From a virus (lineage: Duplodnaviria; Caudoviricetes): a stretch of DNA of 64,000 bases. The stretch covers positions 40,465-104,464 of IMG/VR virus record IMGVR_UViG_2816332268_000002. One strand, given 5' to 3'. The notes under the pieces were generated by a model. The model did no database searches. It had not been told where the DNA came from and saw only the letters and a program-made list of their open reading frames with translations. The number at the start of each line of letters is the position of its first letter. Within the stretch, counting starts at the first letter, position 1. The position numbers and the translations under genes were made by a program. Below are positions 361 to 56,922 of this stretch, one piece after another.

Positions 361-380
361 ATAAGTCACTTATGACTTAT
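361..380. promoter_or_regulatory. Palindromic operator-like site
   Basis: ATAAGTCA-ctta-TGACTTAT, perfect; contains the ATG at 372. Confidence 0.8.
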
Positions 381-758
381 ATTGACCTTCTCGGCGCCCC
401 GTTTGAACTCGGTGGCCGCGGGCCTGATTCGTTTGACTGCTACGGGCTCGTCATGCACCTCACGGAACAGGCGACCGGTAAGCGCCCGCCGGATTACGGG
501 GTGTCAGGGGATGCAGCGCGTATCGGGGCAATGATGGCCTGCGCCCGTGTTTTCTGGAAAAAGCTCGACGGGCCGAAGCCTGGCTGCTGCGTGCTTTTCC
601 GGATGGGGCGCCACATCAACCACTGCGGCTACGTCATCGACGCAAACCGCTTTATCCACGCTTGGGACAAGACCGGCGGCGTGACGATTGAGCGGCTTTC
701 GGATTGGGAAAAGAGCAAGAGGGTTTTCGGGTTCTATGAGTATCAGCATGCAGAGTAG
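372..758 (+). CDS. NlpC/P60 tail assembly protein (gpK-like)
   Basis: GAPFELGGRGPDSFDCYGLV, HCGY and FIHA NlpC/P60 motifs; lies between L and J. Confidence 0.88.
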   Translation: MTYIDLLGAPFELGGRGPDSFDCYGLVMHLTEQATGKRPPDYGVSGDAARIGAMMACARVFWKKLDGPKPGCCVLFRMGRHINHCGYVIDANRFIHAWDKTGGVTIERLSDWEKSKRVFGFYEYQHAE

Positions 759-3700
759 CGAACTGGCGCAGGTCATCAACGTCCGGCGTATCGTCAACCC
801 ACTGGATCCACTCTACGAGATCGAGACGGAGCATTGGGCTTACCGGCCGGGTGCCACGCTTGCCGACTATTTGCCTCTGGTGCTGGTGGAAGAAGTAGTG
901 GTGTCGCGCAACGGCGGCATCGTGGAGAGCAAGGATTTCGGGCTGGTATTCCCGCAGCCGGACGACTTCATCGTGCTCTGCCCGATCCCGCGCGGTGGCG
1001 GCGGCTTCAAGGGCATCTTTCGCATGATTGCGATGGTTGCCGTCGCGATCGTCGCGCCCGAGTTGGCGGGCGCGCTTGTGTCGCTCGGCGGCATTGGCCT
1101 GGCAGCAGCAGTCGGCTCGGCCGGTTTAACCGCGATCACCGCGGCAGTGACGGTTGGCATCGCGGTCGCTGGCTCGCTGTTGATCAACGCGATTATGCCG
1201 CCTCCCACGCCGACGAACAGCTCGAACAACAGTCTGTCTTCGAGCTCGACATACGGTGCCGATGGAGCAAAAAACACCAGCGCCGAGGGACTGCCGGTGC
1301 CGGTTTGCTATGGTGCGTTCCAGATGGCAGGCAACATCATCGGCGCCTACACCGAGAACGTCGACAACAGCCAGATCCTCTACATGCTGATCAACGCCGG
1401 GGAAGGCCCGATCGCGTCGATCTCGAATATTCGCCTCAACGATCGGGACATCAGCGAGTTCAAGGAAGTCGCGGTGCAGACGCGTATGGGCGATCCGACC
1501 CAAGGAGTGATCGACTGGTTCTCCAAGGTCATCGTCCCGCACAGCAAGAGCCAGATTCTCCCGCACGATAGCAGCTACCTGCAGTTTTCCACGTCCGATT
1601 CGGTCGAACAGGTTCGCCTGGACTTCACGTTCCCCGCCGGCTTGTTTGCGCTCGATCGCAATTCGGGCGACATGCAGACCAACACCTGCGTCATTGAGGC
1701 AGATTATCGCCTCGTGGGTGCAACTGATTGGACGCCCTTCAGCGCGACCCAACCGTCCTACAAGAACGTCAAGATCCGACCGAAGATCTACCGAGGCGGC
1801 TTCCTCGGTAACGATTACCCCAGCGACCCCAGCGACAAGATCACCGATTTCGCGATCGTGTATTCGGACACGAATACCGATGTCGATAGTTCGCTCGTCG
1901 CTGCGCTGAAAAACCAATACTGGAACTACGTCGGACGTCCATACTCGACATGGCTGAGCGCCTTCGGCGGAATGTGGATCTCGACGTCGATCTCGATTCC
2001 CGGACGCGGCGGCGCGTTGATCGTGACGGAGAAGATGCGTTCAACGGTGCGCCGATCCTACTTCACGCCGCAGCTGCCGCTCGGGAAGTATGAGGTTCGC
2101 GTTCGGCGCAACGAGAACTACACCGACTGGACCAGCGGCAACCCGCGCGTTATCCGCGGCCAGCCTATCACTGGTGACACGTCGCAATCCGAGTGCTATA
2201 TCACGGACCTGAACGAGATCGTCTACGAGGGTGTCGCCTATAACCACACGGCGCTCGTGGCTCTGCGCGTTCAGATGGACAGTCAGCTGTCGGGCATCCC
2301 GTCGGTCACGTTCACGAACGGTGGTCGGCTTATCACGACGATGACGCGCGACAAGGGTGTCATCCAGACGGCACAGTCGGCAAGCGCGAACCCGGCCTGG
2401 GTCTACTACGACATGGCGACGAACGGTCGCTATGGTCCGGGCTTCAGCCCGGATCGACTAGACATGGACTCGCTGTTCGAGTGGGCTGAGTTCTGCGACT
2501 CCAATGGCCTGACGTTCAACGCGGTTCTCGACCAGACGATGAACTTCTGGGATGCGTCCGCGTATGTGCTGCGCGTTGGTCACGCTCAGGTCATCACGGT
2601 CGGCACGCGCTACTACATCGCGATCGAGCGCGCATCCGATCCCGTGATGATGTTCGGTATGGGCAACATCATGCAGGACACCTTCAAGCAGACGTGGCTG
2701 GGCACGGTCGATCGCGCGACCGAAGTCGATGTGACCTACTTCGACCGGACGGACGGCTACAGGGAAAAGACCGTCAAGGTCACCAACCCGGATTCAGTGC
2801 TTGAAGGGCAAAAGCAGAACGCGAGCGCGATCACGCTGTATGGCGTGGTCGACATCAAGCGCGCCTACATGGAGGGCGCCTTCCAGCTCAACCTGAATCG
2901 CTACCTGCAACTGACGTGCGAGTGGCAGTCCCCGGTCGAGTCCATCGCGTGTGCGCCGGGCGACGTGGTGCTGGTGCAGCACGACATGCCCGCATGGAGC
3001 GAGTCGGGTCGCACGGCCGCTGGCTCGAGCAACAGCGTCATTAAGCTCGACAAGCTCGTCACGATGGAGGCTGGCGGCCGCTATCGCCTGCTGGTTCTGA
3101 GCAACACGGTCACGCGCGGGACGTCGGTAATTCAGGCGATCACCGGGACTTTTGTGCAGGTCGCCAACGGCACGCCGTCGGGACGGCTGATGCGCCTGAC
3201 GAACGGGGCGGGCGCCGACGTCGGCATCACCAACGTGCTGCCGGATGGAGTCTATGTCGAATCCACCGCTGGGCTCTCGGTCGGCCAGCCGGTCACCTTC
3301 ATCGACACCGATGTCGTGGAGGAGCATGACGTCGTCCTGGCGCCGGGGCAAACCGACACCGTCCAGCTGGTGTCGCCGATGTCGTATGCGCCGGGTCCGT
3401 TCATCAACTATATGTTCGGGAAGACGGAGAAGGTCAAGAAGCCGTTCCGCATCAAGGGTGTGACGCTTGGATCGTCCGATTTCCATCGGACGATCACGGC
3501 AATCGAGTATCGGCCGGAAGTCTACGACCTGTCCCAATACGAAGAGGTCTACGGCTCGCTCGAGGTGCCGTCTATCGATCCGTCGCAAGGCGTGATCAGT
3601 GCCGTCCAGAACCTCACGATCTACGAGGAGACGTTCGTCTCCGGCACGCAGATCCTTACGAACGTGCGGGCCGCATGGGCGAACCCGGTGGTTGGGGCGT

Positions 3701-6700
3701 ATGCGGGCGCTGACATTCACCTGTCGATCAATGGGGCGACGCCGGTGCTCGCTGACACGGTCCGCGGGGATACGAGCTATCTCGTCAAAGGGCTGAACAA
3801 GGGTGACACGGTGACCGTGCGCGCGGTTGCGTATGACATCTGGGGCAAGCGCGCGAGCTACGATCAATCGCCCACGGTGACCTACAAGGTGGTCGGCTCC
3901 GTCTCGAACCTAGCGGTCGCCGATGTAACCGGCGTGAACTTCATCTGGGCCGGCAAGGATCTGAAGCTGTTCTGGAACTACAACTCGACCACGCAGTCGT
4001 TCGAGTTTGGCTCCGAGCCGAACGGCGCGGACAGCGGTTCGCTGGACCCGCACTTCCTCGACTACGAGGTGCGCGTCTACGACCACAGCCACAAACTTCT
4101 GCGCGTCGAGCACACACGCGACAACAACTACATCTACACCTACGAGAAGAACGTCGCCGACGGCACGCATCGCCGCGTGACCGTCGAAATCGCCGTGCGC
4201 GACGTCTTCAACAATGTCGGCCGGCCCGCCGTCATGGACGCCTATAACCCGCCCCCGACGGTGGTATCTGCGAACCAGAGCGCCGACTACGATCGCGTGA
4301 CGATCTCCTACACGCACTCGGACGATACGGACTTCGCTGGCGCGGCGATCTATCTGAGTGATGATCCGAACTTTGTCGCGGACTCGACAACCCTGGTTTA
4401 CCAAGGCCCGGACAGCTCTGTGCTGCTGCCGAACCTGATGTTCAACCACGACTACTACTACGTGCTCGTGCCGTTTGATGCGTTCGGAATGGACGAGACG
4501 ATTCCGACGCCGAAGTTCAAGTTCCACACGCCGTTCATGGACGTTAATGCGATTGCGGACGGTGTGCTGAATGGATCGAAGCTCATCCCCGAACTTCAAC
4601 AGCGGATTGACCTCGTTGACGGGAACGGCCTCGGCTCGGTGAACCAGCGTGTGCAGGAGGCGATCGACACCGCGAACAAGGCGATCGCGGCGGCGAGCGC
4701 TACATCTGCGGCAGCGACTAAGGACGCGCTCGATGCGGAGGCGGCAGCCCGCAAGGTCGCAGAGGGCGCACTCACCGCGGCCATCACGACCGAGCAGCAG
4801 ACGCGCCAAGCGGCTGACGATTCGCTCTCGAGCCAGGTCCAGTCGGTGACGGCGCGGGTCGATCAGAACGCGGCGGCCATCCAGACCGAACAGACTGCCC
4901 GTGCGAACGCTGACAGCTCCTTGTCGACCCGAATCGATACCGTTGTCGCCACGACGAGCAACAACACTGCGGCCATTACCAGTGAGCAGAAAGCGCGCAC
5001 CGATGCAGACTCGTCGCTGTCGACCCGAATCGACACCGTGACTGCATCGGTTGCGAGCGCCAACGCCGCAATCGTGAACGAACAGACCGCGCGCGCAAAC
5101 GCCGACAGTGCAAACGCGTCGAGCATCAGCTCAGTGCAAGCGCAGCTGGGCAACGCGCTCCTGTTCCGTGTCTCGAGCAACGGTGCATCGGCAGTGGGTG
5201 CCGCCGCCACGGGCCTTTACAACGCCGTGTCGGGCGTGAAGCTGCAGGGTGGTGCACGCAGCTACAACGTTGCGACGGTCGACGCAACCGGCGCCGTGAC
5301 AGCGCGCGGATCATTCGACGTTTTCAGCAGCACGGCGGCGCGCGACAATCTGGTGACGCTGTTGAACGGCTTGCCGAACACGGTGACGGTGGTTGTGTGG
5401 ACGTTCGACGAGCCACAAGGGAACCTCGCCGGCGCGCTTCAGAATGCGCTGGTGCGCTGCGGCGCGACCAATGCAGTTCTGTCGCAGGTTAAATATCGAT
5501 CCGCCTACATTCTCGTAGGCGTGCCAGGCAGCAACGAGGGTTCTGGCACCGAGCTATACGCCGGCGCGGTCGACAGCGACACGAAGGCGTTCCTGACATA
5601 CACCTTCCAGGTGCTCAACGGGAGGCCCGTGGCAACGGCCGGCGGCCAGCTCCCGATGGTGATCCAGGCGAGTGTGACATCCGAGACGAATGCGCGCGTG
5701 GCGGCCGATGGCGCGCTGGGGTCGCGAATCGACGCGGTTGTGGCAAGTGCGGCCGGCAACACCGCGGCCATCACGACCGAACAGACCGCCCGTGCGAGCG
5801 CCGACTCCGCATTATCGACCCGCATAGACACGCTGTCGTCGACGGTAGGCAGCAACACAGCCGCGATCACGACCGAGCAGAAGACGCGCTCGGACGCTGA
5901 TAGCGCGCTGTCGAGCCGAATCGACACACTCGCGAGCTCTGTGAGCTCGAACACCGCAGCGATTACGACCGAGCAGACGGCACGCGCGAACGGGGATAGT
6001 GCGAACGCGGCGTCGATCACGAACCTGACGACGACGGTCAACGGCCACACGACCACGATTCAGCAGCAGGCAAGCTCGATCAACGGCTTGAATGCGCAAT
6101 ACACCGTCAAGATCGACAACAACGGGTATGTGGCGGGCTTCGGCCTCGCGTCGACGACGGTAAACGGTGTGCCGACGAGTGAGTTCGCTGTCCGCACCGA
6201 TACCTTCTCCGTGAACCTGCCGGGCTACGCGGGCGTGCATCCGTTCACGATCGGTGCAGTCTACGGTCAGCCGAAGGTGATCATCAGCAGTGCGCTGATT
6301 GGTGATGCGTCGATCGACAACGCGAAAATCGGCGACTTGCAGGTGAACACTGCAAAGATTGCGGACGGCTCGATCAACAGCGCCAAGATCGGTTACGCTG
6401 CGATTCAGTCAGCACACATTGGCGAGGCGCAGATCGACACCTTGCGGATCGGCCAGAACGCCGTGACGACCGGTGTGTATTGGGAAACAACAAGTGGATC
6501 CAACTACGGATCGGGCTTCACCTATCGGTCAACGGGCAATCCAGTGTTGTTTATCTTTGCTGGTTTGTCGACAAGCGCCTTTGGTGGCGTTCTCAGCGTC
6601 GACGGTAAGCAGCTTGGTGCATACATTGGCGGGCGAACAAACCAACAAAACAATGTCGCCATGGGCCTCCCTCTGCCGACCTATGGATGCTGTTCGGCCA

Positions 6701-6780
6701 ATCTTGCACCCGGCGATCACTCCGTGTCGATTACCGGTGACATCCATTACGTCATCTACGCAATCGAGTTCAAACGATAA
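748..6780 (+). CDS. Tail tip / host-specificity protein (gpI-gpJ fusion type) with coiled-coil repeats and an inserted ILEI/GG-like domain
   Basis: ATG at 748; N-terminal ..PRGGGG + hydrophobic stretch (gpI-like); VPVCYG, GEGPI and NPAW J motifs; repeated AAITTEQTARAxADSAL; C-terminal YTVKID..GYVAGFGL. Confidence 0.9.
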   Translation: MQSSELAQVINVRRIVNPLDPLYEIETEHWAYRPGATLADYLPLVLVEEVVVSRNGGIVESKDFGLVFPQPDDFIVLCPIPRGGGGFKGIFRMIAMVAVAIVAPELAGALVSLGGIGLAAAVGSAGLTAITAAVTVGIAVAGSLLINAIMPPPTPTNSSNNSLSSSSTYGADGAKNTSAEGLPVPVCYGAFQMAGNIIGAYTENVDNSQILYMLINAGEGPIASISNIRLNDRDISEFKEVAVQTRMGDPTQGVIDWFSKVIVPHSKSQILPHDSSYLQFSTSDSVEQVRLDFTFPAGLFALDRNSGDMQTNTCVIEADYRLVGATDWTPFSATQPSYKNVKIRPKIYRGGFLGNDYPSDPSDKITDFAIVYSDTNTDVDSSLVAALKNQYWNYVGRPYSTWLSAFGGMWISTSISIPGRGGALIVTEKMRSTVRRSYFTPQLPLGKYEVRVRRNENYTDWTSGNPRVIRGQPITGDTSQSECYITDLNEIVYEGVAYNHTALVALRVQMDSQLSGIPSVTFTNGGRLITTMTRDKGVIQTAQSASANPAWVYYDMATNGRYGPGFSPDRLDMDSLFEWAEFCDSNGLTFNAVLDQTMNFWDASAYVLRVGHAQVITVGTRYYIAIERASDPVMMFGMGNIMQDTFKQTWLGTVDRATEVDVTYFDRTDGYREKTVKVTNPDSVLEGQKQNASAITLYGVVDIKRAYMEGAFQLNLNRYLQLTCEWQSPVESIACAPGDVVLVQHDMPAWSESGRTAAGSSNSVIKLDKLVTMEAGGRYRLLVLSNTVTRGTSVIQAITGTFVQVANGTPSGRLMRLTNGAGADVGITNVLPDGVYVESTAGLSVGQPVTFIDTDVVEEHDVVLAPGQTDTVQLVSPMSYAPGPFINYMFGKTEKVKKPFRIKGVTLGSSDFHRTITAIEYRPEVYDLSQYEEVYGSLEVPSIDPSQGVISAVQNLTIYEETFVSGTQILTNVRAAWANPVVGAYAGADIHLSINGATPVLADTVRGDTSYLVKGLNKGDTVTVRAVAYDIWGKRASYDQSPTVTYKVVGSVSNLAVADVTGVNFIWAGKDLKLFWNYNSTTQSFEFGSEPNGADSGSLDPHFLDYEVRVYDHSHKLLRVEHTRDNNYIYTYEKNVADGTHRRVTVEIAVRDVFNNVGRPAVMDAYNPPPTVVSANQSADYDRVTISYTHSDDTDFAGAAIYLSDDPNFVADSTTLVYQGPDSSVLLPNLMFNHDYYYVLVPFDAFGMDETIPTPKFKFHTPFMDVNAIADGVLNGSKLIPELQQRIDLVDGNGLGSVNQRVQEAIDTANKAIAAASATSAAATKDALDAEAAARKVAEGALTAAITTEQQTRQAADDSLSSQVQSVTARVDQNAAAIQTEQTARANADSSLSTRIDTVVATTSNNTAAITSEQKARTDADSSLSTRIDTVTASVASANAAIVNEQTARANADSANASSISSVQAQLGNALLFRVSSNGASAVGAAATGLYNAVSGVKLQGGARSYNVATVDATGAVTARGSFDVFSSTAARDNLVTLLNGLPNTVTVVVWTFDEPQGNLAGALQNALVRCGATNAVLSQVKYRSAYILVGVPGSNEGSGTELYAGAVDSDTKAFLTYTFQVLNGRPVATAGGQLPMVIQASVTSETNARVAADGALGSRIDAVVASAAGNTAAITTEQTARASADSALSTRIDTLSSTVGSNTAAITTEQKTRSDADSALSSRIDTLASSVSSNTAAITTEQTARANGDSANAASITNLTTTVNGHTTTIQQQASSINGLNAQYTVKIDNNGYVAGFGLASTTVNGVPTSEFAVRTDTFSVNLPGYAGVHPFTIGAVYGQPKVIISSALIGDASIDNAKIGDLQVNTAKIADGSINSAKIGYAAIQSAHIGEAQIDTLRIGQNAVTTGVYWETTSGSNYGSGFTYRSTGNPVLFIFAGLSTSAFGGVLSVDGKQLGAYIGGRTNQQNNVAMGLPLPTYGCCSANLAPGDHSVSITGDIHYVIYAIEFKR

Positions 6781-6789
6781 GGAAGCAGC

Positions 6790-7149
6790 ATGCAGGACTA
6801 TTTGATTTACGACAGCGATGGCCGAATCACGACGCGTGCCCGGATGCCGGACGCAATGATCGACATCCAAGTCGTGCCAGAGGGAGGCACGCTGCTGCGT
6901 GCACAGTGTGACATTGCTCTGGACTGGGTCGAGGCAGGCGAAGTTAAGCGTCGCCCGGCCAATCCGGCCACCATTGACGGGATGTCGCTCAAGAACCTGC
7001 CGGCGCGATGCACGATCGTCGTTAATGGCGAAGCGCATGAATGCGCCGACAATAGCGCAACCCTGTCGTTCAGCCAGCCGGGCACCTATCCGGTGATCGT
7101 AAAGGCGTGGCCGATGCTCGATGCAATTTTCGAGGTGACACAAGCATGA
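6790..7149 (+). CDS. Tail-associated hypothetical protein
   Basis: RBS AAGGA; directly after J in the same operon. Confidence 0.7.
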   Translation: MQDYLIYDSDGRITTRARMPDAMIDIQVVPEGGTLLRAQCDIALDWVEAGEVKRRPANPATIDGMSLKNLPARCTIVVNGEAHECADNSATLSFSQPGTYPVIVKAWPMLDAIFEVTQA

Positions 7150-7334
7150 AGATCCATCACGAGGTCGACCCGACCCCACTGCGGCAGGCCGACTACCAGG
7201 ACGTCGGTGAGCAGCTCGACGCCATCATGAAGGGGTTCGACGCGCTGGCGCGGCAGGGCATCCAGCTCCCGGGCGAGACGCTCGAATGGATCCGACACTG
7301 CAACGAGGTGAAGGACCGCTACAAGAAGGAGTGA
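7146..7334 (+). CDS. Small tail-associated protein
   Basis: ATGA overlap with previous gene; R.ADY.DVGEQLDAI motif common in tail-adjacent small proteins. Confidence 0.65.
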   Translation: MKIHHEVDPTPLRQADYQDVGEQLDAIMKGFDALARQGIQLPGETLEWIRHCNEVKDRYKKE

Positions 7335-7352: not shown

Positions 7353-7381
7353 TTGTAGATAAGTCAGCAATGACTTATACT
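7353..7381 (+). promoter_or_regulatory. Promoter TTGTAG-N17-TATACT with the palindromic site filling the spacer
   Basis: ATAAGTCA-gcaa-TGACTTAT at 7359-7378, perfect. Confidence 0.8.
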
Positions 7382-7416: not shown

Positions 7417-10400
7417 ATGGCACAACTCAAGGTCAAATGTTCGATCGACAACGGCGGTCAGACCGTGACGTTGCCCGGTCAGAACGTGGCATACCGCATT
7501 CGGGCGAACAATATTTTCCTGATCGTTGGAGAGTATGTGCCCTATGTGGTTGCCGCCGACGCGACCTTCGATGGCACGAGCACGAAGTTCACGCTCGCTG
7601 GTGCCTATCAAGGGCAGGGTGGTGTCGGTCTTGATTGCGCTGTTGCGACGGACTTCACCGTGCCGGACAACCTCCCGACGCTTTCGCAGGGCGATGTCGG
7701 CACAGCCGCGATCTTCACGAAGGCGATGTATCAGATCCAGGACATGATCAAAGAGGTCAGCCCGGAAGGTTTTGCCGCATCGATCAGTGAGATCCACGCC
7801 AGTCTGAACGGAGCGCAACAGGCACAGGCCGCTGCAGCCGGTTCGGCCGGCGCAGCCGCGGACAGCGCGGCGAACGCAGCCGGCAGTGCGACTGCAGCGG
7901 CAGGCAGCTCAAGCGCGGCTGCAGCGAGCAAGTCTGCCGCTGCAACGAGCGCGGCCAACGCAAAGACAAGTGAGACGAACGCGGCTGCATCAGCGACCGC
8001 GGCCGCGAACTCCGCCACGTCGTCCGCGAACAGCGCTTCGAACTCGGGTTCTTCTGCTTCTGCGTCCGCAGCAAGCTCTATCAGCGCAGCAAACAGCGCG
8101 ACAAATGCGGCAAACTCGGCAAGCGCTGCGGCAGCATCAGCAACGAACGCAAAGGCATCCGAGACAAATTCGAAGACGTCCGAGACGAACGCGAAGACCA
8201 GCGAGACGAATGCAAAGGCGTCGGAAACGAGCGCCGCGTCGTCGAAGGCTGCTGCGGCAACGAGCGCAACCAATGCTGCGAACTCGGCAACCGCTGCTGC
8301 GGGTTCGGCCACGGCCGCTGCCGGCTCGGCGAGCGCGGCGAGTGCATCGGCATCGAGCGCGAGCAGCGCGCTTACGCAGGTTCAGGGCATCCTGACCACA
8401 ATGAACGCCCTGTATCTGGGCAAGCAGTCTGCCGACCCGACCAAGGATAACAACGGTAACCCGCTCGTCGTGGGCTGCGAGTATTTCAACACGACGACGA
8501 ACCAGATGCGGGTCTACACCAGCACTGGCTGGCAAGACCAAGACGCGACTGCCGAAACGATGGCAGCGAACGCGACCGCGAGCGCATCCCAGGCTGCCGG
8601 ATCGGCCACTGCCGCCGACAACAGCGCCGCAGCTGCCGCGAGCAGCGCATCGTCGGCCAGCTCGTCGAAGGCTGCAGCCGCAACCAGTGCCACCAACGCG
8701 GCGAATTCAGCCAGCGCCGCGGCCGCCTCGCAAACCAGCGCGGCGACGAGCGCAACGAATGCGGCAAACAGCGCAACGGCCGCGGCGAATAGTGCTGCGC
8801 AGGCCCAGACTGCAGTGAGCGGCTACGCCAAGCTTGACGGAAGCTCGCCGTTCACGGGGCCGGTCAGTGTCAACAGCGCGCCTACTGCTACGAGCGCGCA
8901 GCTCTCCGTTAAGGGCGCGTCCGGCGCAAACGGCGTCGAAAGCAAGATGCGGTTTTGGGGCACGTTCGGTGGCACCAATACCGATACCGGGTCGCGTCTC
9001 ATCGCCTCAGTTCGGGCAGGCTTCGACGGCGGAGCATGGGGCAAGGAATACCTGGACTTCCTCGTAAACAATTCCGCAAATGATTCTCAGAGCGACGCCA
9101 ATCAAGCGCGCGCGATGCGGCTGACGTTCGGCGGTCGAGTGCTTGTGGGTGATACGTCCGACGACGGTTATTCGGGCCTACAGGTCGCAGGAAGCGGGAC
9201 GTTTGGCGGTGGTGTCACGTCTTCGGGTCTTGATCGCGGCGGTGCGAATTTCCGGCTGATGAACGGCAAGGACGTGCTGCTGCGAAATGATGGTTCGAAC
9301 TTCTACTTCCTGCTTTCCAATGGAAGTGGCACCGGGGCATCGTGGAACAACTATCGGCCGCTTACGATCAATGTTGCCACGGGTGTCGTGTCAATTGACG
9401 ACACGGGAGTAGGGACGTATGTCGGCGGTCAACTGAACGTCAAGGGCATGCTCAACGTGAGCAACGGTCCTGCGGAGGGGCGCGCACTCTTCGGCCCGAG
9501 CGGTGGTTACTACTTCGGAAGCGCGACTCAGGCTGGGTTCTATCTCCCATCTTCCGGGGCGATGTTCGCGTTCGATTTCGCCAAGAAGAATCTGGTTATC
9601 GGCAGTGGGAGCGAGGTGTGGCATGCAGGGAACCTGTCGAGCCCGGCGCAAACGACCGGCATCACTATGTCTGGGCAGTTTCTGGCCGCTGAGGGTTCGG
9701 TAGGGACGCCGGGTATTGCGTTTGCGAACGATGGCGCGCCGGACACTGGCTTTTTTCACGTTGCTGACGGCGTATTTGCAATCACCAATAACAGCCGAGA
9801 AACGATGCGGTTTCTGGCTGCTGACGGAACCTATCAGAATAACCGCGTGCTCATCGGCACGACCGTCGACGACGGCAACATGTTGCAGGTCGGCGGTAAC
9901 GCTGTTACTCGCGGACTCCACCGATTCGGCAGCGGCGCAACCACGGCGTGGGTAAACAGTGATGCCACATGGGGTTACTTTCGCTCCAACGGCAATGTGT
10001 CGGTCGGGAGTGAAGGTGCTACAGGCTCGCTGCAGCTGCTTGCAGGGAAAGCAGAGGCCGCGCGGCTGTATCCGGGCGGCCGGATGACGATCGGCGGAAT
10101 CGCTGACGACGGCACTACGTCTCTCCAATCGAAGGGGGCGATCAAGGCGATAGGGTCGGTTGGCGCGTTCGTGGCGACGAACGGCGGCGGCGATAAGCAG
10201 ACCTCGATCATCCTTCGTCGGGAAGCCGCCCCCACCGATCAAAAACAGTGGGAAGTTCTTCACGGCGGCGATGGCGCGTTCACAATTCGGGCCGTGAACG
10301 ATGCCTATAGCCAGGCGCAGGACGCGTTCTATATTTCTCGAGGCGCTGGCATCGCGGCAGGCAATATCGGCCTGATGCCGAATGGTGGGCGAGTCCTCGT

Positions 10401-12647: not shown

Positions 12648-12667
12648 GTAAGTCACTAATGACTATA
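12648..12667. promoter_or_regulatory. Palindromic site before the lysis cassette
   Basis: GTAAGTCA-ctaa-TGACTATA. Confidence 0.8.
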
Positions 12668-12705
12668 CATCGTCGATGTTTGCGGATAACATCGGCGATG
12701 TTTTT
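12667..12705 (+). terminator. Putative intrinsic terminator of the tail operon (has an alternative fold)
   Basis: ACATCGTCGATGTT-7 nt loop-AACATCGGCGATGT followed by TTTT. Confidence 0.6.
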
Positions 12706-13117: not shown

Positions 13118-13660
13118 ATGAACATGACTTATTCCAAGACCGGACTGCAACTGACGGAGCACTTCGAGGGCTGCGTGCTTTACGCCTACCCGGATCCGAA
13201 GTCTCCGCTGGGGGTAGAGCTCCAACGCCGCGGGCTCTGGAAGAAAACGCTCGCCGGTGCGCCGATCGCTGCCGACCTACTCAACAAGTTGAGCGCGCGG
13301 CCGTGGACGATCGGCTACGGCCATACCGGGCCGGAAGTGCGTTACGGGCTGGTATGGACGCAAGCGCAAGCGGAGGCGGCACTGATGAAGGATGTGCAGG
13401 CTGCGGTCGACGCAGTCAACCGTCTCGTGAAGGTGCCGCTGAGCCAATGCCAGTTCGATGCGCTCGTCGATTTTGTCTTCAACCTCGGCGAAACGCGATT
13501 TGCGGGCTCCACCATGCTGCGTCTGCTGAACGCCGGTCTGTATGAGGCCGCCGCCAACGAATTCCAAAGGTGGGATATGGCAGGCGGCGTTCACGTTGCG
13601 GGCCTGCTGCGGCGCCGGCAAGCCGAAGCGCGGGAATTCCGCTGCGAGGAGCCGGCATGA
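13118..13660 (+). CDS. Endolysin, GH24 lysozyme
   Basis: FEG...AY.D...WTIGYGHT...QFDALVDFVFNLG...GLLRRRQAE motifs. Confidence 0.93.
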   Translation: MNMTYSKTGLQLTEHFEGCVLYAYPDPKSPLGVELQRRGLWKKTLAGAPIAADLLNKLSARPWTIGYGHTGPEVRYGLVWTQAQAEAALMKDVQAAVDAVNRLVKVPLSQCQFDALVDFVFNLGETRFAGSTMLRLLNAGLYEAAANEFQRWDMAGGVHVAGLLRRRQAEAREFRCEEPA

Positions 13661-15352: not shown

Positions 15353-15374
15353 GTAAGTAAGCAATGACTATAAT
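15353..15374. promoter_or_regulatory. Palindromic site plus TATAAT before hfq-dnaB
   Basis: GTAAGTAA-gcaa-TGACTATAAT; 15352-15375 identical to 18302-18325. Confidence 0.8.
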
Positions 15375-15416
15375 TAAGTCATCGCTAATTTTTCATCAAC
15401 TCACTGGAGTTCCAGC

Positions 15417-15800
15417 ATGACCCCCGAGCAAGCTCGCCAAGAACAGATCAACGCCGGCCGCCGAATGATTACGCTCGAGCATCGCACGCTCGAAAGCCGC
15501 ACGGGCAGTGTCGCTCGTCCGCAGTATGGGGAACAGCGCCCGCGTGCCACCGCACGCCCGCCGAAGGGTCACGATGCCATCCTCAAGGCGATGCAGGAAG
15601 AACGTCAGCTCGCCACGATCATCACTACGGGTGACGTCACGTTCGAAGGGCTGGTGACCGGCCGCGACAAATATACGATCACGCTGCTGACCAAGCATCC
15701 GAAGGACTCGACGCGTCTGATTCGTCGCGTGTTCTACAAGCATGCGATCGAACAGTTCTTCGGCGTGCCCCAGGACAGCGATACGTCGGCGGTGCAGTGA
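15417..15800 (+). CDS. hfq: Hfq/LSm-like protein
   Basis: Gapless Sm1 match (D.IL.A...ER....I.........G.....D.Y.I.L) and Sm2 YKHAI signature of Hfq. Confidence 0.8.
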   Translation: MTPEQARQEQINAGRRMITLEHRTLESRTGSVARPQYGEQRPRATARPPKGHDAILKAMQEERQLATIITTGDVTFEGLVTGRDKYTITLLTKHPKDSTRLIRRVFYKHAIEQFFGVPQDSDTSAVQ

Positions 15801-17206: not shown

Positions 17207-18310
17207 ATGGCGACTGACGATCTGTCAGAGCTGCTGGATACCATCGATATGCCCTCGTGGATGGATCGCGAGGGCATTTCTTATCGGCTCACGCACGGCC
17301 GATCGGGCCAGCAAATCAACGTGCGGGAATGCCCGACGTGCGGCAACTCCGACTGGAAGGTCTACGTCAACGCCGACACCGGCGTCGGCAACTGCTTCGC
17401 CGGCTCGCACCCGGTCGAAGAGCGGATCTTCACCAAATACCGGTTCATTCGCGACCATCTGGGTCGGCCGCACGGTTCGAAAGTCATCGAGCACATCAGG
17501 GCATACGCGCGCGAACAGGGCTGGCGGCCGGCGCGACGTCAATCCGTCGAGGTCGAGAAGCATGTCGGCTGGGAGCTGCCGCAGCACATCGACCTACCTC
17601 ATGAGGGGCGCAACCTCGCCTATCTCGAGAACCGCGGCATCACTGCGGACCTGTCTGCGTATTTTCACCTCGCCTACTGCCCGCGCGGTGCGCACTTCCG
17701 GTATCCGGCCGAGCGTGGTTGGGCCTACCAGGACTACAGCGCACGCGTGCTGATCCCGGTGTTCGACATGGATGGGAAGCTCGCGACATTTCAGGGGCGC
17801 GACGTGACCGGCCATGCCGAGAAGAAGTATCTCTTCCCGCCGGGCATCGATGGATCGGGCGTGCATCTGTTCAACGGGCTCAACGTCCACGACACGAAGC
17901 GCATAGCGGTAGGTGAGGGCGCGTTCGACGTAGCGGCGATCAAGATCGCGCTCGACGCGGATCCGCAACTGCGCGACGTGGTTCCGGTGGGCACGTTCGG
18001 CAAGCACCTGTCGTCGGGCAGCGATAACAGTCAGCTCGCGAAGTTCATGTTGCTCAGGGAGCGCGGCGTCGAGGAGGTGACCTTCATGTGGGATGGGGAA
18101 GTTCAGGCGACCGACGACGCGGTCGAGGCCGGATTGATGCTGCGCCAGCACGGGTTTCGCGTGCGTATCGCAATGCTTCCGCCCGAGAAAGATCCGAACG
18201 AGGTGCCTGCCGAGGTGGTGCGGCGCGCGTTCTATGGGGCGACGCTGCTGAACGGGGTGTCAGCGATGCAGCTCCGAATGAGTCGTCGTATTATGAATTC
18301 AAGTAAGTAA
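17207..18310 (+). CDS. DNA primase (Zn finger plus TOPRIM)
   Basis: CPTC...C..H zinc finger; FQGR; VGEGAFD; WDGE; KDPNE; follows the helicase. Confidence 0.88.
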   Translation: MATDDLSELLDTIDMPSWMDREGISYRLTHGRSGQQINVRECPTCGNSDWKVYVNADTGVGNCFAGSHPVEERIFTKYRFIRDHLGRPHGSKVIEHIRAYAREQGWRPARRQSVEVEKHVGWELPQHIDLPHEGRNLAYLENRGITADLSAYFHLAYCPRGAHFRYPAERGWAYQDYSARVLIPVFDMDGKLATFQGRDVTGHAEKKYLFPPGIDGSGVHLFNGLNVHDTKRIAVGEGAFDVAAIKIALDADPQLRDVVPVGTFGKHLSSGSDNSQLAKFMLLRERGVEEVTFMWDGEVQATDDAVEAGLMLRQHGFRVRIAMLPPEKDPNEVPAEVVRRAFYGATLLNGVSAMQLRMSRRIMNSSK

Positions 18311-18324
18311 GCAATGACTATAAT
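18303..18324. promoter_or_regulatory. Palindromic site plus TATAAT
   Basis: GTAAGTAA-gcaa-TGACTATAAT. Confidence 0.8.
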
Positions 18325-19482: not shown

Positions 19483-19759
19483 GCGACCCATCTACAAGCC
19501 GATCGAGCAGGTTGCGATCGGCCAGCAATTCATCGACCTCGATACGCGCGCTCGCATGCTGCGCATCGGCAACATCATGTCGGGCCACCGGCCGTCGCTC
19601 GCTGAAGAATTCCAGCGTCAGGAGCTGCACAGCGTCGCGCTCGAGCCCGGAAAGCTGCTGGATGGCCGGCCGTTCCCGGCCGGCCAGGTCTTCACGATGC
19701 GTCGCAACGAGGCGGTGGAGGTCATCAACATCGAACCCGAACATCACACAAAAGGATAA
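19479..19759 (+). pseudogene. Small gene with an apparent 1-bp deletion near 19487 (frameshift or sequence error)
   Basis: ATG AGC GAC CC[C] ATC TAC AAG would join the ATGA-overlap start to the open frame that ends at TAA 19759. Confidence 0.55.
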
Positions 19760-37726: not shown

Positions 37727-37746
37727 ATAAGTCGCCAGTGATCTAT
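37727..37746. promoter_or_regulatory. Degenerate palindromic site
   Basis: ATAAGTCG-ccag-TGATCTAT; TACAAT at 37751. Confidence 0.6.
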
Positions 37747-38196: not shown

Positions 38197-38214
38197 GTCA
38201 GTAGTGACTATAAT
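38193..38214. promoter_or_regulatory. Palindromic site plus TATAAT
   Basis: ATAAGTCA-gtag-TGACTATAAT. Confidence 0.8.
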
Positions 38215-39930: not shown

Positions 39931-41895
39931 ATGGATTTTCTGAAACTGCGTGCGGTCAACTTCCTGACGCTGGGCGACACAGGTGACATGCCGCTCAAGG
40001 ACCGCGGTCTGATCGCGATCATGGGCGAGAACAAGGACGACTCGTCGGCGAAATCGAACGGTTCGGGCAAGTCCTCGATCGCTGACGCGTTGTGCTGGGC
40101 GCTCTTCGGGACGACGGCCCGTGGCGAGTCTGGGGACTCGATCATCAACCGGAAGGCTAAGAAGAACACCTACGCCGCGGTGACCGTGCAGGATGGCGAG
40201 TCCATCTACGAGATCCGTCGCCACCGCAAGGATAAGCAGTTCAAGAACGGGACGACCATCACGGTCTGGAACCCGGCCGATCACTACTTCAACAGCGGCG
40301 CAGGCGAGCGGATCGAGAAGGGCACCGAGAAGGAGATCCAGGCTCAGATCAACGAAATCGTCGGCTGCACCTACGAGGTGTTCAAGGCGGCGATCTATGC
40401 CGGGCAGGAGGATATGCCTGATTTGCCGAAGATGACCGACAAACCGCTCAAGATGCTGATCGAGAAGGCGGCCGGCATCGAGCGTCTCGAGAAAGCCTAC
40501 GAGATTGCGGGCAAGAAGCGGGATGCCGCGGTGGCGGCTGTCGAGTCGTCGAAGAAGCAGATCGAGAACGCCGAAGCCCACATCATCAACTGGAAGGTGT
40601 CGCTTCAGCAGGCGGAACAGCAGCACGCTCAGTTCGAGGCCGCGCGGCCGGACGTGCAGAAGGGGTGGGTCGAGCGTCAGGATGCGATCGCAGATGCGAT
40701 GCGCAAGAACTTTACGACCTATCAGAACATGAAGGAGCCGGAGCTGATAGCGGAGCGTGATTCGCTCCAAGCGCAGCTGGCCGACCACAACAAGCTCCTT
40801 CAGCAGCGTGACGCGCTGATCCGCGACGAGAACAACGCGCGATCCGAGCTGCGAGTGGCGCAGGCAGAGTTGGGTGCGATGCGGACCAAGGTTGTCACGT
40901 TGACCGATGCGATCAAGAACGCGCCGGAAGCGATGTCGAAACCGTGCGGCGAGTGCGGCAAGCCTCACACGCCGGACGAGCTGGACACCTTCATCACGCA
41001 TCAGAAGACGAAGGCAGCCGAGGTCGCGACGGAATACCAGGCAAAGCGCGCTGAGGTCGATGCGCTGGAAGCAAAGGTCACGGCGGCCAGCAAGGCGGTG
41101 ACGGACTTCGCAGCGACGATCCCGGACGTGTCCGCGGTGTCGGCGCGCGTCGCGGACCTCAATTCGCACATCGGCTCGGCGCAGCACCTGAAGAGTGTCC
41201 TGCAGCAACAGAAGACCGAGCACGACCGTTGCTCGACCCAAGCTGCGGCTGCGCTGACGGCGGTCAATCCCCACCAGTCGGCCGTCGACATGGGCAAGCA
41301 GCAGATCGAAGCGCTCGAGAAACAGGTGGCAGACGTCAAGGCGGCGCAGGCACCGCTTCTGCAGGCGGCCGAGGTCGCGGAGAGCGTCGTGAAGGTGTTC
41401 GGGCCGGCGGGCGTGCGCGCTCAGATCCTCGATACGGTGACGCCGTTCCTGAACGACCGCACGTCCGATTACCTGTCGGCTCTGTCGGACGGGAACATCA
41501 GCGCGGTCTGGTCGACGCTCGCGAGCACGACGAAGGGCGAGGCCCGCGAGAAGTTCCACATCGACGTGGAGAACGCAGAGGGAGCGGACAACTTCGGCGG
41601 GCTGTCGGGCGGTGAGAAGCGCAAGGTTCGACTCGCGACCATGCTCGCGCTGCAAGACCTCGTGGCATCCCGCGCTGCCAAGCCCATTTCCCTGTGGGTT
41701 GGTGACGAAATCGACGACGCGCTCGACAACTCGGGCCTCGAACGCCTCATGACCGTGCTGGAGCAGAAGGCGCGGGAGAAGGGCACGGTCCTCATCATCA
41801 GTCACGAATCACTGTCGGATTGGTGTGACCAGACTGCGACCGTCACGAAAAGCGGAGGCGTATCGACGGTATCGGGGGCGCTGTGTCACGCGTGA
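39931..41895 (+). CDS. sbcC: SbcC/Rad50/gp46-like ATPase
   Basis: NGSGKSS; coiled coil with CGECG hook; LSGGE; DE..D.LD; IISH. Confidence 0.92.
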   Translation: MDFLKLRAVNFLTLGDTGDMPLKDRGLIAIMGENKDDSSAKSNGSGKSSIADALCWALFGTTARGESGDSIINRKAKKNTYAAVTVQDGESIYEIRRHRKDKQFKNGTTITVWNPADHYFNSGAGERIEKGTEKEIQAQINEIVGCTYEVFKAAIYAGQEDMPDLPKMTDKPLKMLIEKAAGIERLEKAYEIAGKKRDAAVAAVESSKKQIENAEAHIINWKVSLQQAEQQHAQFEAARPDVQKGWVERQDAIADAMRKNFTTYQNMKEPELIAERDSLQAQLADHNKLLQQRDALIRDENNARSELRVAQAELGAMRTKVVTLTDAIKNAPEAMSKPCGECGKPHTPDELDTFITHQKTKAAEVATEYQAKRAEVDALEAKVTAASKAVTDFAATIPDVSAVSARVADLNSHIGSAQHLKSVLQQQKTEHDRCSTQAAAALTAVNPHQSAVDMGKQQIEALEKQVADVKAAQAPLLQAAEVAESVVKVFGPAGVRAQILDTVTPFLNDRTSDYLSALSDGNISAVWSTLASTTKGEAREKFHIDVENAEGADNFGGLSGGEKRKVRLATMLALQDLVASRAAKPISLWVGDEIDDALDNSGLERLMTVLEQKAREKGTVLIISHESLSDWCDQTATVTKSGGVSTVSGALCHA

Positions 41896-42464
41896 TCCCG
41901 TTCGGCGCGACGGCGCCGACTGCGCCCACCCATTCAACGAAGGCTCCGACGCTCGACGGGATTGTTGCGGCGATGGAGAAGCTGAAAGCCACTAGACACG
42001 ATGGTGTAGAGCTTGCAGCTAAGGAGAAGCAACAGATGGAAGACAAGCAAGCACAGGCAGTGAAATTGGCCGCGATGTTTTGTGACGAGGCTCGACGGGT
42101 ATTCCAACCCGCAGACGGCTTCAAGCTATCCGGGCCGGCGACGCTGACGATCAAGACGCGTCAGGGGCAATACAAGAAGAAGGCATTCATTGGCGACGAG
42201 GCGTTCTCGTTCTCGTCGGCCTACGCGGGAAAGCGTGGCGACGTGATTGGGGTGTTCAAGTCACGTGTGCCGGTCGACTGGTCGTTTATGGAAATGCCGA
42301 TCAACGAAGCGTGCGACAGCCTGAATGGCTTCAGGGCGTTCGCCGACTCATGCGCGGGCGGCAGCATCGGCGAGGCAATCGAAAACATGGACGCAGCGGT
42401 CGTTGCCGCGAAGGCGGCTGAGCGCAGTGCTCAGATGGCCGACCCTGCGTTCGCAAGCTGGTAA
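41883..42464 (+). CDS. Hypothetical protein
   Basis: Overlaps the end of sbcC; ends in PAFASW. Confidence 0.6.
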   Translation: MSRVIPFGATAPTAPTHSTKAPTLDGIVAAMEKLKATRHDGVELAAKEKQQMEDKQAQAVKLAAMFCDEARRVFQPADGFKLSGPATLTIKTRQGQYKKKAFIGDEAFSFSSAYAGKRGDVIGVFKSRVPVDWSFMEMPINEACDSLNGFRAFADSCAGGSIGEAIENMDAAVVAAKAAERSAQMADPAFASW

Positions 42465-42484
42465 CTCACTCAGAAGGAATCACC

Positions 42485-43066
42485 ATGAGCAGCATCATCA
42501 AGGTGGCGGGACTGGACCCGTCAATGAGCAACTTCGGGGTCGCCCTTGCGGACCTTGACGTCGACAGCATGGAGCTGAAGGTCATCGACCTGATCCTGAT
42601 CGAGACGGAACCCGACCAGACCAAGCAGGTCAAGAAGGTGTCGGACGACCTGCGGCGGGCGTATGAGGTGCGTGAGGGCATGCTCAAAGCACTGCAAGGG
42701 CGCGCGCACGTCGCGTTTTCTGAAATCCCGCTTGGCAGCGCCGCCAAATACAACAACGCGATCTTCAACGCCGGCTTCGTCATCGGCGTGCTCGCGAGCT
42801 GTCCGATCCCGATCATCGAGGTCTTCCCGATGGACGTGAAAATGGCTGCAGTGGGGCACCGGCAAGCCGCGAAGGAGGAAATGATCGAGTGGGCGGTCAC
42901 GAAGTATCCGACTGCACCCTGGAAGACCCGCACGCTGCGCGGTAAGCCCGTGCTCACGAAGAGCAACGAGCACCTGGCGGACGCGGTTGCCGCGATTCAT
43001 GCGGGCATCGAGACGCGGGACTTCGAACAGATGATCGCGATGCGTCGCTCGTTACTCGCCGCTTAG
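42485..43066 (+). CDS. ruvC: RuvC-like Holliday junction resolvase
   Basis: GLDPS..NFG; E; VK.A..G...AAKEEM; HLADAVA. Confidence 0.85.
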   Translation: MSSIIKVAGLDPSMSNFGVALADLDVDSMELKVIDLILIETEPDQTKQVKKVSDDLRRAYEVREGMLKALQGRAHVAFSEIPLGSAAKYNNAIFNAGFVIGVLASCPIPIIEVFPMDVKMAAVGHRQAAKEEMIEWAVTKYPTAPWKTRTLRGKPVLTKSNEHLADAVAAIHAGIETRDFEQMIAMRRSLLAA

Positions 43067-44373: not shown

Positions 44374-44396
44374 ATAAGTTGGTAGTTACTTATCAT
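44374..44396. promoter_or_regulatory. Palindromic site before nrdA
   Basis: ATAAGTTG-gtag-TTACTTAT inside the longer IR GATGATAAGT..ACTTATCATC; TATCAT as -10. Confidence 0.75.
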
Positions 44397-47752: not shown

Positions 47753-47774
47753 ATAAGTAAGCACCGACTATACT
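47753..47774. promoter_or_regulatory. Palindromic site plus TATACT
   Basis: ATAAGTAA-gcac-CGACTATACT. Confidence 0.75.
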
Positions 47775-50921: not shown

Positions 50922-50941
50922 GTAAGTAAATAGTGATCGAA
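50922..50941. promoter_or_regulatory. Degenerate site
   Basis: GTAAGTAA-atag-TGATCGAA. Confidence 0.5.
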
Positions 50942-51012: not shown

Positions 51013-51636
51013 ATGTCGACCAACGTCAAGCTGAGCAACCACGTCCGTGATCAGATCATTTCGAATGCAATGAAGGGCGCTTTCGAGAAAGAGAAGAAGG
51101 CGGTGGCGAAGCAACTTCAGGATCTCGCGATGGCGTGCTACCGCTCGCAAGTGAGCGCGGAAGAAGAGGCAGCGGCACGTCGCGCCCCGGAAGAGTTTCT
51201 CACGCTGTCGAACACGATCACGCTGGCTTTCCGTGACGAGAATGGTAGCCGCACTGCCTACTATAGCAGCGTCGACCTGCCGAAAATCGTTCCGTTCAAG
51301 CGCGGTGGCGGCACCTATCTGACTATCTCGGACAAGAAGCTCAACGCGAAGAAGGACGCCTACGAGAAGGCACATGCTGAGCTCGAAGGGAAATTCGACG
51401 AACTCCGGAATTCGATCCGCGGGATGGTCTACTCCGCAACCACGGTCAAGAAGCTGCTTGATATCTGGCCGGAGTCGGTGAACTTCCTGCCGGATAACTT
51501 GGAGAAGCCTGCGCCGGCTCTCCCGGCGGTCATCGCAACTGACCTGAACAACGCGCTGAAGAAAGCCGGCGTGAAGGTCGGTGTCATCAAGCGGGCCGCA
51601 CAACCGACGGGCGGCCTCGTTGCCGTTGCGGCATGA
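51013..51636 (+). CDS. Nmad5-like protein (putative)
   Basis: KL...RDQI..NA N-terminus and SATTVKKLLDIWPE...LP C-terminus recalled as typical of Nmad5. Confidence 0.6.
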   Translation: MSTNVKLSNHVRDQIISNAMKGAFEKEKKAVAKQLQDLAMACYRSQVSAEEEAAARRAPEEFLTLSNTITLAFRDENGSRTAYYSSVDLPKIVPFKRGGGTYLTISDKKLNAKKDAYEKAHAELEGKFDELRNSIRGMVYSATTVKKLLDIWPESVNFLPDNLEKPAPALPAVIATDLNNALKKAGVKVGVIKRAAQPTGGLVAVAA

Positions 51637-52112: not shown

Positions 52113-52132
52113 ATAAGTCACCAACGACTTAT
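52113..52132. promoter_or_regulatory. Palindromic site
   Basis: ATAAGTCA-ccaa-CGACTTAT. Confidence 0.8.
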
Positions 52133-56283: not shown

Positions 56284-56311
56284 TGACTATAATAAGTAAA
56301 TGATGAACTAA
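56284..56311. promoter_or_regulatory. Half-site plus TATAAT plus site before dnaQ
   Basis: TGACTATA-ATAAGTAA-atga-TGAACTAA. Confidence 0.65.
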
Positions 56312-56325: not shown

Positions 56326-56886
56326 ATGCGAATCATCACCGGGTTCGACCTGGAAACGACGGGACTCGACTGGAACGACGGGCACCGGATTATCGAAGTC
56401 GCCGCAGTTCTCTATGACCTCGACGTGGGCACGCGCCTGGGTCAATACGTGCAGCGGGTAAATCCGCAGCGCCCGATCGACGAGAAGGCGCAGGCAGTCC
56501 ACAAGATCACCTTCGACATGCTCACCGCCGAACCGACGTGGGAACAGGTCGCGCCGAACGTTTCGACGATTCTGGCGCGCACCAATTACGTCGTGGCCCA
56601 CAACGGCTTCGGGTTCGACTTCCCCTTCGTCACGCATGAGCTGCAGCGCGTCGGCATTGCCGTCCCGGAGATCACCGGGATCGACACGATGCTGGAAGCG
56701 CGGTGGGCGACGCCGTTCGGGAAGCTGCCCAACCTCGGTGAGCTCTGCTTCGCCTGCGGTGTTCACTACGACCCGTCGCAGGCCCACGCGGCGCTGTATG
56801 ACGTCGAGCGAATGATGGAAGCGTATTTCGCGGCTCGGAAGATGGGTGACTTCTTCGGCCCGCGGGCAATCGAGGCGGCTGCTTAA
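56326..56886 (+). CDS. dnaQ: DEDDh 3'-5' exonuclease (DnaQ/epsilon-like)
   Basis: DLETTG; AHN..FD; AHAALYD. Confidence 0.9.
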   Translation: MRIITGFDLETTGLDWNDGHRIIEVAAVLYDLDVGTRLGQYVQRVNPQRPIDEKAQAVHKITFDMLTAEPTWEQVAPNVSTILARTNYVVAHNGFGFDFPFVTHELQRVGIAVPEITGIDTMLEARWATPFGKLPNLGELCFACGVHYDPSQAHAALYDVERMMEAYFAARKMGDFFGPRAIEAAA

Positions 56887-56902
56887 ATTTGTGCCTGATG
56901 GA

Positions 56903-56922
56903 GTAAGTCAGTAATGACCAAA
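56903..56922. promoter_or_regulatory. Palindromic site containing the ATG at 56914
   Basis: GTAAGTCA-gtaa-TGACCAAA. Confidence 0.7.

Follow-up and report, generated by a model that had tools for sequence, protein, structure and literature searches.

The window analysed here (64,000 nt) makes up the final 64 kb of a tailed-virus record of 104,464 bp and 60.6% GC (IMG/VR record IMGVR_UViG_2816332268_000002, positions 40,465 to 104,464; the whole record is labelled G000). It was examined for an AT-rich palindrome repeated at gene junctions, and for the gene of a 164-aa XRE protein (Cro/CI-type helix-turn-helix, HTH; 23175-23669, - strand), the candidate repressor that probably acts through the palindrome. 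Almost all genes of G000 lie on the + strand. The predicted gene content is that of a large siphovirus: the window has genes for a DnaE whose C-terminus is a UDG domain, for CobT/CobS-like proteins and a sigma-70 region-2 protein, for a gp32-like SSB, RecA, a FEN-type exonuclease and SbcCD-like nucleases, for ribonucleotide reductase and ThyX, and for an ATP-dependent ligase, a lysozyme and an NlpC/P60 tail protein. DnaE was 37-45% identical to the proteins of Rhizobium phages RHEph10 and B1VFA, Stenotrophomonas phage ANB28, Pseudomonas phage nickie, Xanthomonas phage JGB6 and the Salmonella phage-plasmid SSU5. G000 was placed in the SSU5/nickie/RHEph10 group, and its gene order is syntenic with nickie and SSU5. 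A tyrosine integrase gene was found at 62726-64000 (- strand; PHROG 1, E 1e-43), its ATG being the last base of the record; this gene marks G000 as temperate. The record is probably a provirus cut in silico at the integrase, the att site and host flank being absent from it. Its leftmost 14 kb resembles cargo or host DNA and contains only weak motif matches.

The core of the palindrome is an 18-bp dyad of 7-bp arms and a 4-bp centre, the centres of the two arms being separated by 11 bp, about one helical turn. Its position weight matrix opens A-rich and reads AR-TAAGTMA-SYAR-TGAYTWAA. The exact form RTAAGTMA-N4-TGACTWWW occurs 10 times in the window against 0 in 100 shuffles. Allowing up to three mismatches yielded 33 matches in the window, where 1.0 ± 1.1 were expected from shuffles; the whole record at up to two mismatches also yielded 33 sites (shuffles, 0-3). 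Thirty of the 33 record-wide sites are intergenic, though non-coding DNA makes up 10.4% of the record. A preliminary description of the window had listed 18 copies, nearly all at gene junctions. The motif was recovered at all 18 coordinates, only one of them intragenic. The element exceeds the window: approximately 15 more sites lie 5' of it in the packaging, head and tail region, where the right arm is mostly TGATTTA. Asymmetric arm variants are almost confined to the + strand (+:- ratios of 9:1 for TGACTAT, 8:1 for TGATTTA and 10:1 for TAAGTAA), and the G000 sites therefore have a polarity that follows transcription.

The first of the listed sites, ATAAGTCA-CTTA-TGACTTAT (361-380), follows a minor tail gene that ends at 359 and contains the ATG (372) of the NlpC/P60 tail gene. 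A perfect palindrome (7359-7378) stands 39 nt 5' of a 1472-aa tail-fibre gene (7417). The site at 12648-12667 (+) precedes the lysis region (lysozyme, 13118-13660); a hairpin with a 14-bp stem followed by TTTTAT (12667-12701, +) begins at its last base, 5' of the lysis genes, and may be an attenuator or terminator set after the operator. The Hfq-like gene and the DnaB helicase gene are preceded by a site (15353-15372, +) that continues from its right arm into TATAAT; a weak tandem copy follows at a distance of 21 bp (15374-15393, +). The site at 18303-18322 (+) has 24 bases identical to that at 15353; its right arm again runs into TATAAT and its left arm forms the stop (18308-18310) of a primase-region gene. 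The ATP-dependent DNA ligase gene has its ATG (19767) within the site at 19756-19775 (+), which also includes the upstream TAA (19757-19759). The 255-bp gap 5' of the XRE gene (23670-23924) contains two sites. One (23723-23742, -) is adjoined by a perfect minus-strand TATAAT (23743-23748) and is 54 nt from the XRE start codon, which agrees with the earlier proposal that the XRE promoter itself carries a site. The other is half-degenerate (23863-23882, +) and follows by one base a perfect TATAAT (23857-23862) of the rightward promoter, ahead of a 75-aa gene and CobT/CobS.

Further downstream, a site at 26429-26448 (+) separates the CobT-like and CobS-like (AAA) genes; the CobS-like homologue is preceded by sites in five of the six relatives compared. 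The sole intragenic copy of the window (27253-27272, +) is within the AAA/CbbQ gene and has a degenerate right arm. TATAAT is fused to the right arm at 33063-33082 (+), 5' of the gp32-like SSB gene, and at 38193-38212 (+), 5' of the SbcD/SbcC-like nuclease genes, where the upstream TAA (38194-38196) lies in the left arm. Degenerate sites were found directly 3' of the stop of gene 37256-37726 (37727-37746), after a terminator-like hairpin and 5' of ribonucleotide reductase (44374-44393), and 5' of the Nmad5 gene (50922-50941, +). The site at 47753-47772 (+) precedes the thyX region, and a near-perfect palindrome (52113-52132) stands 15 nt 5' of gene 52147. The site at 56292-56311 (+) comes directly after TATAA (gactataA followed by TAAGT), 5' of a DnaQ-like exonuclease gene, and that at 56903-56922 (+) includes the ATG (56914) of gene 56914-57234. 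The three start codons and the three upstream stops are thus placed within copies of the motif as had been described.

Hexamers resembling a -10 box occupy two mirror positions on the sites: either their final base is the first T of the core, or they begin with the last TA of the core. TAnnnT begins at core position +15 or +16 in approximately 45% of the G000 sites, and in 24% its final T coincides with the core's first T. At 11 of the 33 sites the hexamer is fused to the right arm, or just after it, without a -35; the arm TGACTATAAT with a -10 after it was seen at 15353, 18303, 33063 and 38193, and SSU5 is arranged likewise. Sigma-70 -35/-10 pairs were not enriched at the G000 sites, and canonical sigma-70 promoters were rejected on this ground as an explanation of the sites. 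No conserved -35 or downstream element was found near them. What their flanks do show is A-rich sequence immediately 5' and, further out, a run of T whose end lies about 11 nt upstream and which in some cases is part of a terminator-like hairpin. The preliminary description had the sites often fused to -10 boxes and without a sigma-70 -35 box; the second statement stands, and the first is only partly general, since TATAAT runs from the right arm in some copies and the -10 lies on either side. In seven genomes, the median distance from a site to the next start codon was 21-54 nt.

When IMG/VR was scanned for the exact pattern, many contigs of 100-120 kb were retrieved, each of them holding several copies. 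Relatives of 44-61% GC carry the same 18-bp dyad in 18-56 copies per genome: 39 in G001 (44% GC), 35 in G002 (60% GC), 37 in G003 (54% GC), 41 in B1VFA, 56 in RHEph10 and 18-19 in SSU5. There were 0 in nickie and 0-1 in ANB28 and JGB6. More than 90% of the sites in relatives are intergenic, and the site-bearing relatives have almost no nucleotide similarity to the window. Among 24 further genomes chosen by TerL similarity alone, 13 contained 20-52 canonical sites each; six others (G009, G012, G017, G018, G021 and G023) had mostly variant dyads, weak in G009 and without a called variant in G017 (66% GC). The geometry of the dyad is constant between lineages and the arms change symmetrically. 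The arm is TAAGTCA in G000-G003 and many others, TAAGTAA in B1VFA and G021 (and together with TAGGTAA in SSU5 and the phage-plasmid Cyrano), TAGGTAG in G023, ATAGTCA in G012, and of AATCAAT type in RHEph10 and G018. Genomes without DNA similarity have sites ahead of the same genes (the helicase/ParB divergent gap, portal, major capsid, major tail, CobT, CobS and DnaB). Four bacterial genomes that host relatives, with the element on a separate contig of about 110 kb, were scanned at up to one mismatch. Of 69 matches, 67 were on the element (22 of 24 in Chitinibacter tainanensis, 3.4 Mb; 14 of 14 in Faunimonas pinastri; 24 of 24 in Massilia sp.; 7 of 7 in Magnetospirillum molischianum), so the frequency of the motif sets the element apart from these host chromosomes. 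A second, unrelated palindrome (AAACA-N3-TGTTT / AACAA-N1-TTGTT) was seen in 10-14 copies in SSU5 and G023.

The XRE protein was assigned using Pfam, PHROG, a profile search and an AlphaFold2 (AF2) model. Pfam HTH_3 was matched with E 7e-4, and the PHROG matches are transcriptional regulators. A profile of 21 homologues searched against the PDB retrieved the pLS20 repressor Rco (8bny; E 1.7e-6), with the 434 repressor and Cro weaker; 8bny, a plasmid repressor annotated as immunity repressor, was the only solved structure under the default cut-off of the search. In the AF2 model the predicted local distance difference test score exceeded 90 over residues 10-80 (five helices), which are followed by more helices, the C-terminal half being predicted helical. 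The modelled HTH domain was superposed on P22 c2 and 434 Cro with a root-mean-square deviation (rmsd) of 1.8 Å, and superpositions that included C-proteins and DdrO gave an rmsd of approximately 1.5-3.2 Å. The five-helix, HTH_3-type domain of Cro/CI repressors is thus present, as are a twofold-symmetric site with half-sites about one turn apart and a tolerant centre, and a site in the protein's own promoter within a divergent switch region. An autocleavage domain of the CI/LexA type was not seen (no Peptidase_S24 match), and any induction must therefore use another route. The 75-aa gene beside XRE was considered as a Cro and rejected, having no HTH match; an iterative profile search found no homologue of it, and a weak, manually aligned resemblance links it to small genes at the same position in B1VFA, RHEph10, G002 and Cyrano.

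In Cyrano, a phage-plasmid of LF82, the homologue (CYRAN_45) is annotated as a putative repressor and is divergent from a small gene and CobT, as in G000; its promoter is also similar, with TAATAT just 5' of a degenerate site. CYRAN_45 is reported among the genes transcribed in the lysogen at 10x local background, and Cyrano is induced by ciprofloxacin (PMC9928086). Sites flank the XRE gene in G002, G003, B1VFA, RHEph10 and Cyrano; none were found near it in G001. Among plasmid records, 870 carry XRE homologues; the plasmids come from Klebsiella, Escherichia, Enterobacter, Yersinia and Salmonella, are mostly non-mobilizable and, among those listed, measure about 105-115 kb. Sixty-three of these records are from Yersinia, the two Y. 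pestis records listed being 96-113 kb, and hundreds are phage-plasmids of Klebsiella and E. coli.

All G000 proteins were compared with nine relatives by tblastn, and XRE was the only G000 gene whose presence tracked the motif. Homologues were present in G001, G002, G003, B1VFA and RHEph10; none was found in the motif-less lytic relatives nickie, ANB28 and JGB6, even by profile search at maximum sensitivity. All 25 IMG/VR loci retrieved by XRE similarity contained 2.3-9 sites per 10 kb, against 0-0.1 in the XRE-less nickie, ANB28 and JGB6; these densities are counts of a degenerate pattern, because de novo dyad calling is unreliable on high-GC loci of 10-20 kb. An XRE homologue was present in 23 of the 24 TerL-selected genomes. 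The exception, G021, starts 296 nt before CobT, so that the record ends within a few hundred bases of the expected locus. SSU5 has no XRE homologue, yet carries 19 sites, two of them shown at near-matching coordinates in Cyrano. From CobT to the next shared block there is approximately 1 kb in SSU5 (about 41776-42761) and approximately 8 kb in the XRE-bearing G023 (1-7162). This fits SSU5 being a repressor-less lytic derivative, and the missing XRE gene would account for the lytic behaviour of this isolate. The putative recognition helix is PN(I/M)ITM(F/L)K in genomes with TAAGTCA and TAAGTAA arms, NANNLS(N/L)IK in those with TAGGTAG and TARGTAA, and PNMLSMIR in the ATAGTCA genome, which is consistent with co-evolution of helix and operator.

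The palindromes are thus likely to be dispersed operators of one phage-encoded, dimeric Cro/CI-type repressor, the XRE protein, a reading supported by the way its gene co-occurs and co-varies with the motif. The preliminary description had proposed one dimeric regulator, most likely XRE, over early and late operons, and the comparative evidence (the nine-genome survey and the 23 of 24 genomes) supports it. Binding, dimerisation, repression rather than activation, and a role in lysogeny are inferred for the protein. It would bind as a dimer, each recognition helix reading one 7-bp arm (TAAGTMA / TKAYTTA) and the 4-bp centre going uncontacted. In most transcription units, among them those for tail, lysis, replication, recombination, nucleotide metabolism and the repressor itself, an operator would adjoin or overlap the -10 hexamer or the start site. 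In the prophage, operator occupancy would silence almost all of the genome, which would be freed again once the repressor is lost. Some sites lack a recognisable promoter, contain a start codon or precede a terminator-like hairpin, and these may be roadblocks or have other roles.

Several observations weigh against this assignment. The arms in G000 are asymmetric and strand-biased, and the right arm differs by region (TGATTTA in the structural region, TGACTATAAT in the replication region); the sites accordingly also carry promoter-class information, which a pure operator model leaves unexplained. Three sites hold start codons, and one is immediately followed by a terminator-like hairpin. The sites of SSU5, which lacks the XRE gene, are also compatible with another binder. 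The Pfam HTH_3 score of the XRE protein was 20 bits, under the gathering cut-off of 23, and Foldseek with the AF2 model gave no match at E 0.001. Helix and operator have switched independently only a few times, and phylogeny confounds their co-variation. The host-frequency test was made on the four hosts of relatives, with G000's own host chromosome outside it.

Another phage protein, an activator or second switch protein, might bind the palindrome while XRE merely co-travels in the immunity region, which we regard as unlikely. The 19 sites kept by SSU5 without an XRE homologue, 12 of 18 with TAnnnT from the last TA of the right arm, favour such a binder, as do the 11 of 33 G000 sites with a -10-like hexamer at the right arm and no -35, which recall the activator-dependent Lpa promoters of P1 (PMC10695390). 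No other G000 gene, however, tracked the motif in the nine-genome survey, and sites precede early, late and regulator genes alike. In B1VFA, G002, Cyrano and the XRE region of G000 the -10 precedes the site, and in SSU5 and part of G000 it follows it. This variable position speaks against an activator, because repressors tolerate such shifts and activators do not; a site that lies over the spacer or start site, and before several promoter classes, behaves as a repressor operator. It is less probable again that the sites are promoters, or promoter cores, for host RNA polymerase with the phage sigma-like protein (27726-28382), the second possibility raised by the preliminary description as composite promoters. 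In favour of it are the nearby gene of a sigma-70 region-2 protein, the lack of enrichment of canonical -35/-10 promoters and the co-orientation of the arm variants with transcription. The sigma homologue was found only in G000, G002, B1VFA, RHEph10, ANB28 and JGB6. It is absent from the motif-rich G001, G003 and SSU5 (and from nickie) and present in the motif-less ANB28 and JGB6, and on this distribution sigma-factor promoters were rejected. The perfect twofold symmetry seen in G001 and B1VFA is also unexpected for a sigma promoter. Moreover, many sites in B1VFA and G002 lie 1-8 nt downstream of a separate bipartite promoter-like motif of 12-16 copies per genome (gcgcaTCCC-N13-gcgcTATAA in B1VFA, GCAAACC-N12-cgCTATATT in G002). 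It also occurs without the palindrome, an arm following in 9 of 16 copies in B1VFA and 4 of 12 in G002 (the latter with a restricted arm pattern), and is itself a plausible candidate target of the phage-encoded sigma-like protein.

A hairpin in RNA or DNA (5' stabiliser, processing site, attenuator or cruciform) is a very improbable origin of the palindrome. A 7-bp stem with a 4-nt loop could form, sites are close to start codons, and the changes between genomes are symmetric, so that pairing is kept. Within seven genomes, however, 343 deviations affected a single arm and 32 affected both arms, where about 44 two-arm deviations were expected under independence, and only 13 of the 32 were compensated. 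G-T mispairs (38) equalled A-C mispairs (36), so the sense strand shows no wobble preference, and 12 of the 33 G000 sites keep four or fewer of the seven arm pairs. The hairpin was rejected for lack of compensation. The stem sequence is kept across genomes of 44-61% GC, and upstream -10 hexamers, if functional, would place the start site within the left arm. In nine sites compared with provirus L185 (91-97% identical), none of 126 arm positions was changed and all five changes fell in the 4-bp centres; other intergenic DNA has diverged by 6.1% between the two. Arms that are conserved and vary independently, with a free centre, point to the site of a dimeric protein and not to a structure. Least probable of all are centromere-like or silencing sites of phage ParB-family proteins, comparable to the sites on RK2 of KorB, which acts through palindromic sites at many promoters. 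The terminase gene is indeed preceded by two ParB/Srx-like genes and an ABC ATPase (nickie annotation), but the ParB-like gene and its neighbours are conserved in the motif-less nickie, ANB28 and JGB6, for which reason this candidate was rejected. Nick sites, as in Pseudomonas phage tf, were considered because of the name nickie and rejected: the motif is absent from nickie, and nothing further supported them.

A repressor network of this kind would have counterparts in known phages. The operators of P1 are asymmetric 17-mers read by C1, a protein of non-XRE type. G000 would have in common with P1 a single repressor with scattered operators overlapping promoters, and differs in having twofold-symmetric sites with 7-bp arms rather than asymmetric 17-bp ones, and a Cro/CI-type HTH candidate. 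The G000 sites are also twice as numerous and reach through the late structural operon. Cluster A mycobacteriophages have approximately 20-35 short repressor sites (stoperators, read by L5 gp71) in short intergenic gaps of early and late regions; these are asymmetric, 13-14 bp long, oriented with transcription, independent of promoters and block elongation, and their variants co-evolve with the repressor and define immunity groups. The present sites differ in being palindromic, and symmetric in most relatives, with many abutting -10 hexamers; the orientation bias is shared only by the G000 arm variants. With lambdoid CI/Cro, 434 and P22 c2 there are in common the HTH fold, 14-18-bp dyad operators with an uncontacted centre, a divergent autoregulated switch region and heteroimmune operator/repressor variants. 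Lambdoid phages, however, have two to three operator clusters confined to the immunity region, whereas the sites of G000 stand at about 30 transcription units and no S24 domain was found. Rco is the closest solved sequence relative of the XRE HTH region, with similarity over only about 67 residues, and controls a single conjugation promoter by DNA looping, unlike the network of sites in G000. In Rco the XRE domain is N-terminal and the C-terminal part is a helical oligomerisation region (PMC9986798).

P1 itself has one immunity repressor and many operators across a temperate phage-plasmid of about 100 kb with dozens of transcription units, and its Lpa late promoters consist of a -10 hexamer and an inverted repeat that replaces the -35 (PMC10695390). 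The latter resemble those sites of G000 and SSU5 in which TAnnnT continues from the right arm. There are, however, 11 Lpa promoters, all late, with a 9-bp repeat fixed 5' of the -10, whereas G000 sites precede early, late and regulator genes with the -10 at variable positions; no search for an Lpa homologue was made. The comparisons support a network that functions like the dispersed-operator immunity of P1 and Cluster A phages, with a lambdoid-like Cro/CI protein and symmetric operators. It would be a third, symmetric case of a genome-wide repressor site network beside these two.

Literature searches with the motif strings and for an SSU5 repressor or operator found nothing, and no description of lysogeny control in SSU5-type phage-plasmids was found, within a searchable literature that is incomplete. 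We offer only tentatively, and lean slightly against, a wider proposal: that the palindrome and XRE form the immunity system of the whole SSU5/pHCM2/pMT1-like phage-plasmid supercluster and its integrative relatives in Alpha-, Beta- and Gammaproteobacteria. Symmetric operators would then stand at nearly every transcription unit and fall into heteroimmune types (TAAGTCA, TAAGTAA, TAGGTAG, ATAGTCA and AATCAAT), and the operators of G000 would in addition have fused with the promoter cores of particular classes, which would let one protein gate early promoters in another way than late ones. SSU5-group phage-plasmids, a large and medically relevant family, are frequent in Klebsiella, E. coli, Salmonella, Enterobacter and Yersinia, and the operator network may be traceable on the phage-plasmids of Yersinia, Klebsiella and E. 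coli too. Some members carry resistance genes (10.1101/2022.06.24.497495). A defined operator with a candidate repressor would allow immunity groups to be predicted from sequence and is directly testable. For annotation, the motif marks transcription-unit boundaries and separates the element from host DNA.

Other features of the element were recorded. Two LexA-box-like sequences (CTGT-N8-ACAG) are present in the leftmost, cargo-like region, at record positions 3727-3742 (CTGTATATCCATACAG) and 4302-4317; as the XRE protein has no autocleavage domain, they could tie the element to the SOS response. The Hfq-like protein (15417-15800, +), directly 5' of DnaB, has a long N-terminal extension and scored 26.6 bits against Pfam Hfq (cut-off 27); no homologue was detected among the nine relatives. 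DnaE (29021-32380, +) ends in a UDG-superfamily domain, and the Nmad5 (nucleotide-modification-associated) protein is encoded at 51013-51636 (+); together they are a hint of modified DNA bases. The first 20 kb of the window was compared with deposited phages using megablast, and the sole match (9218-10113, 74% identity) was to the tail-fibre gene of Burkholderia phage AP3, which suggests a Burkholderia-like host.

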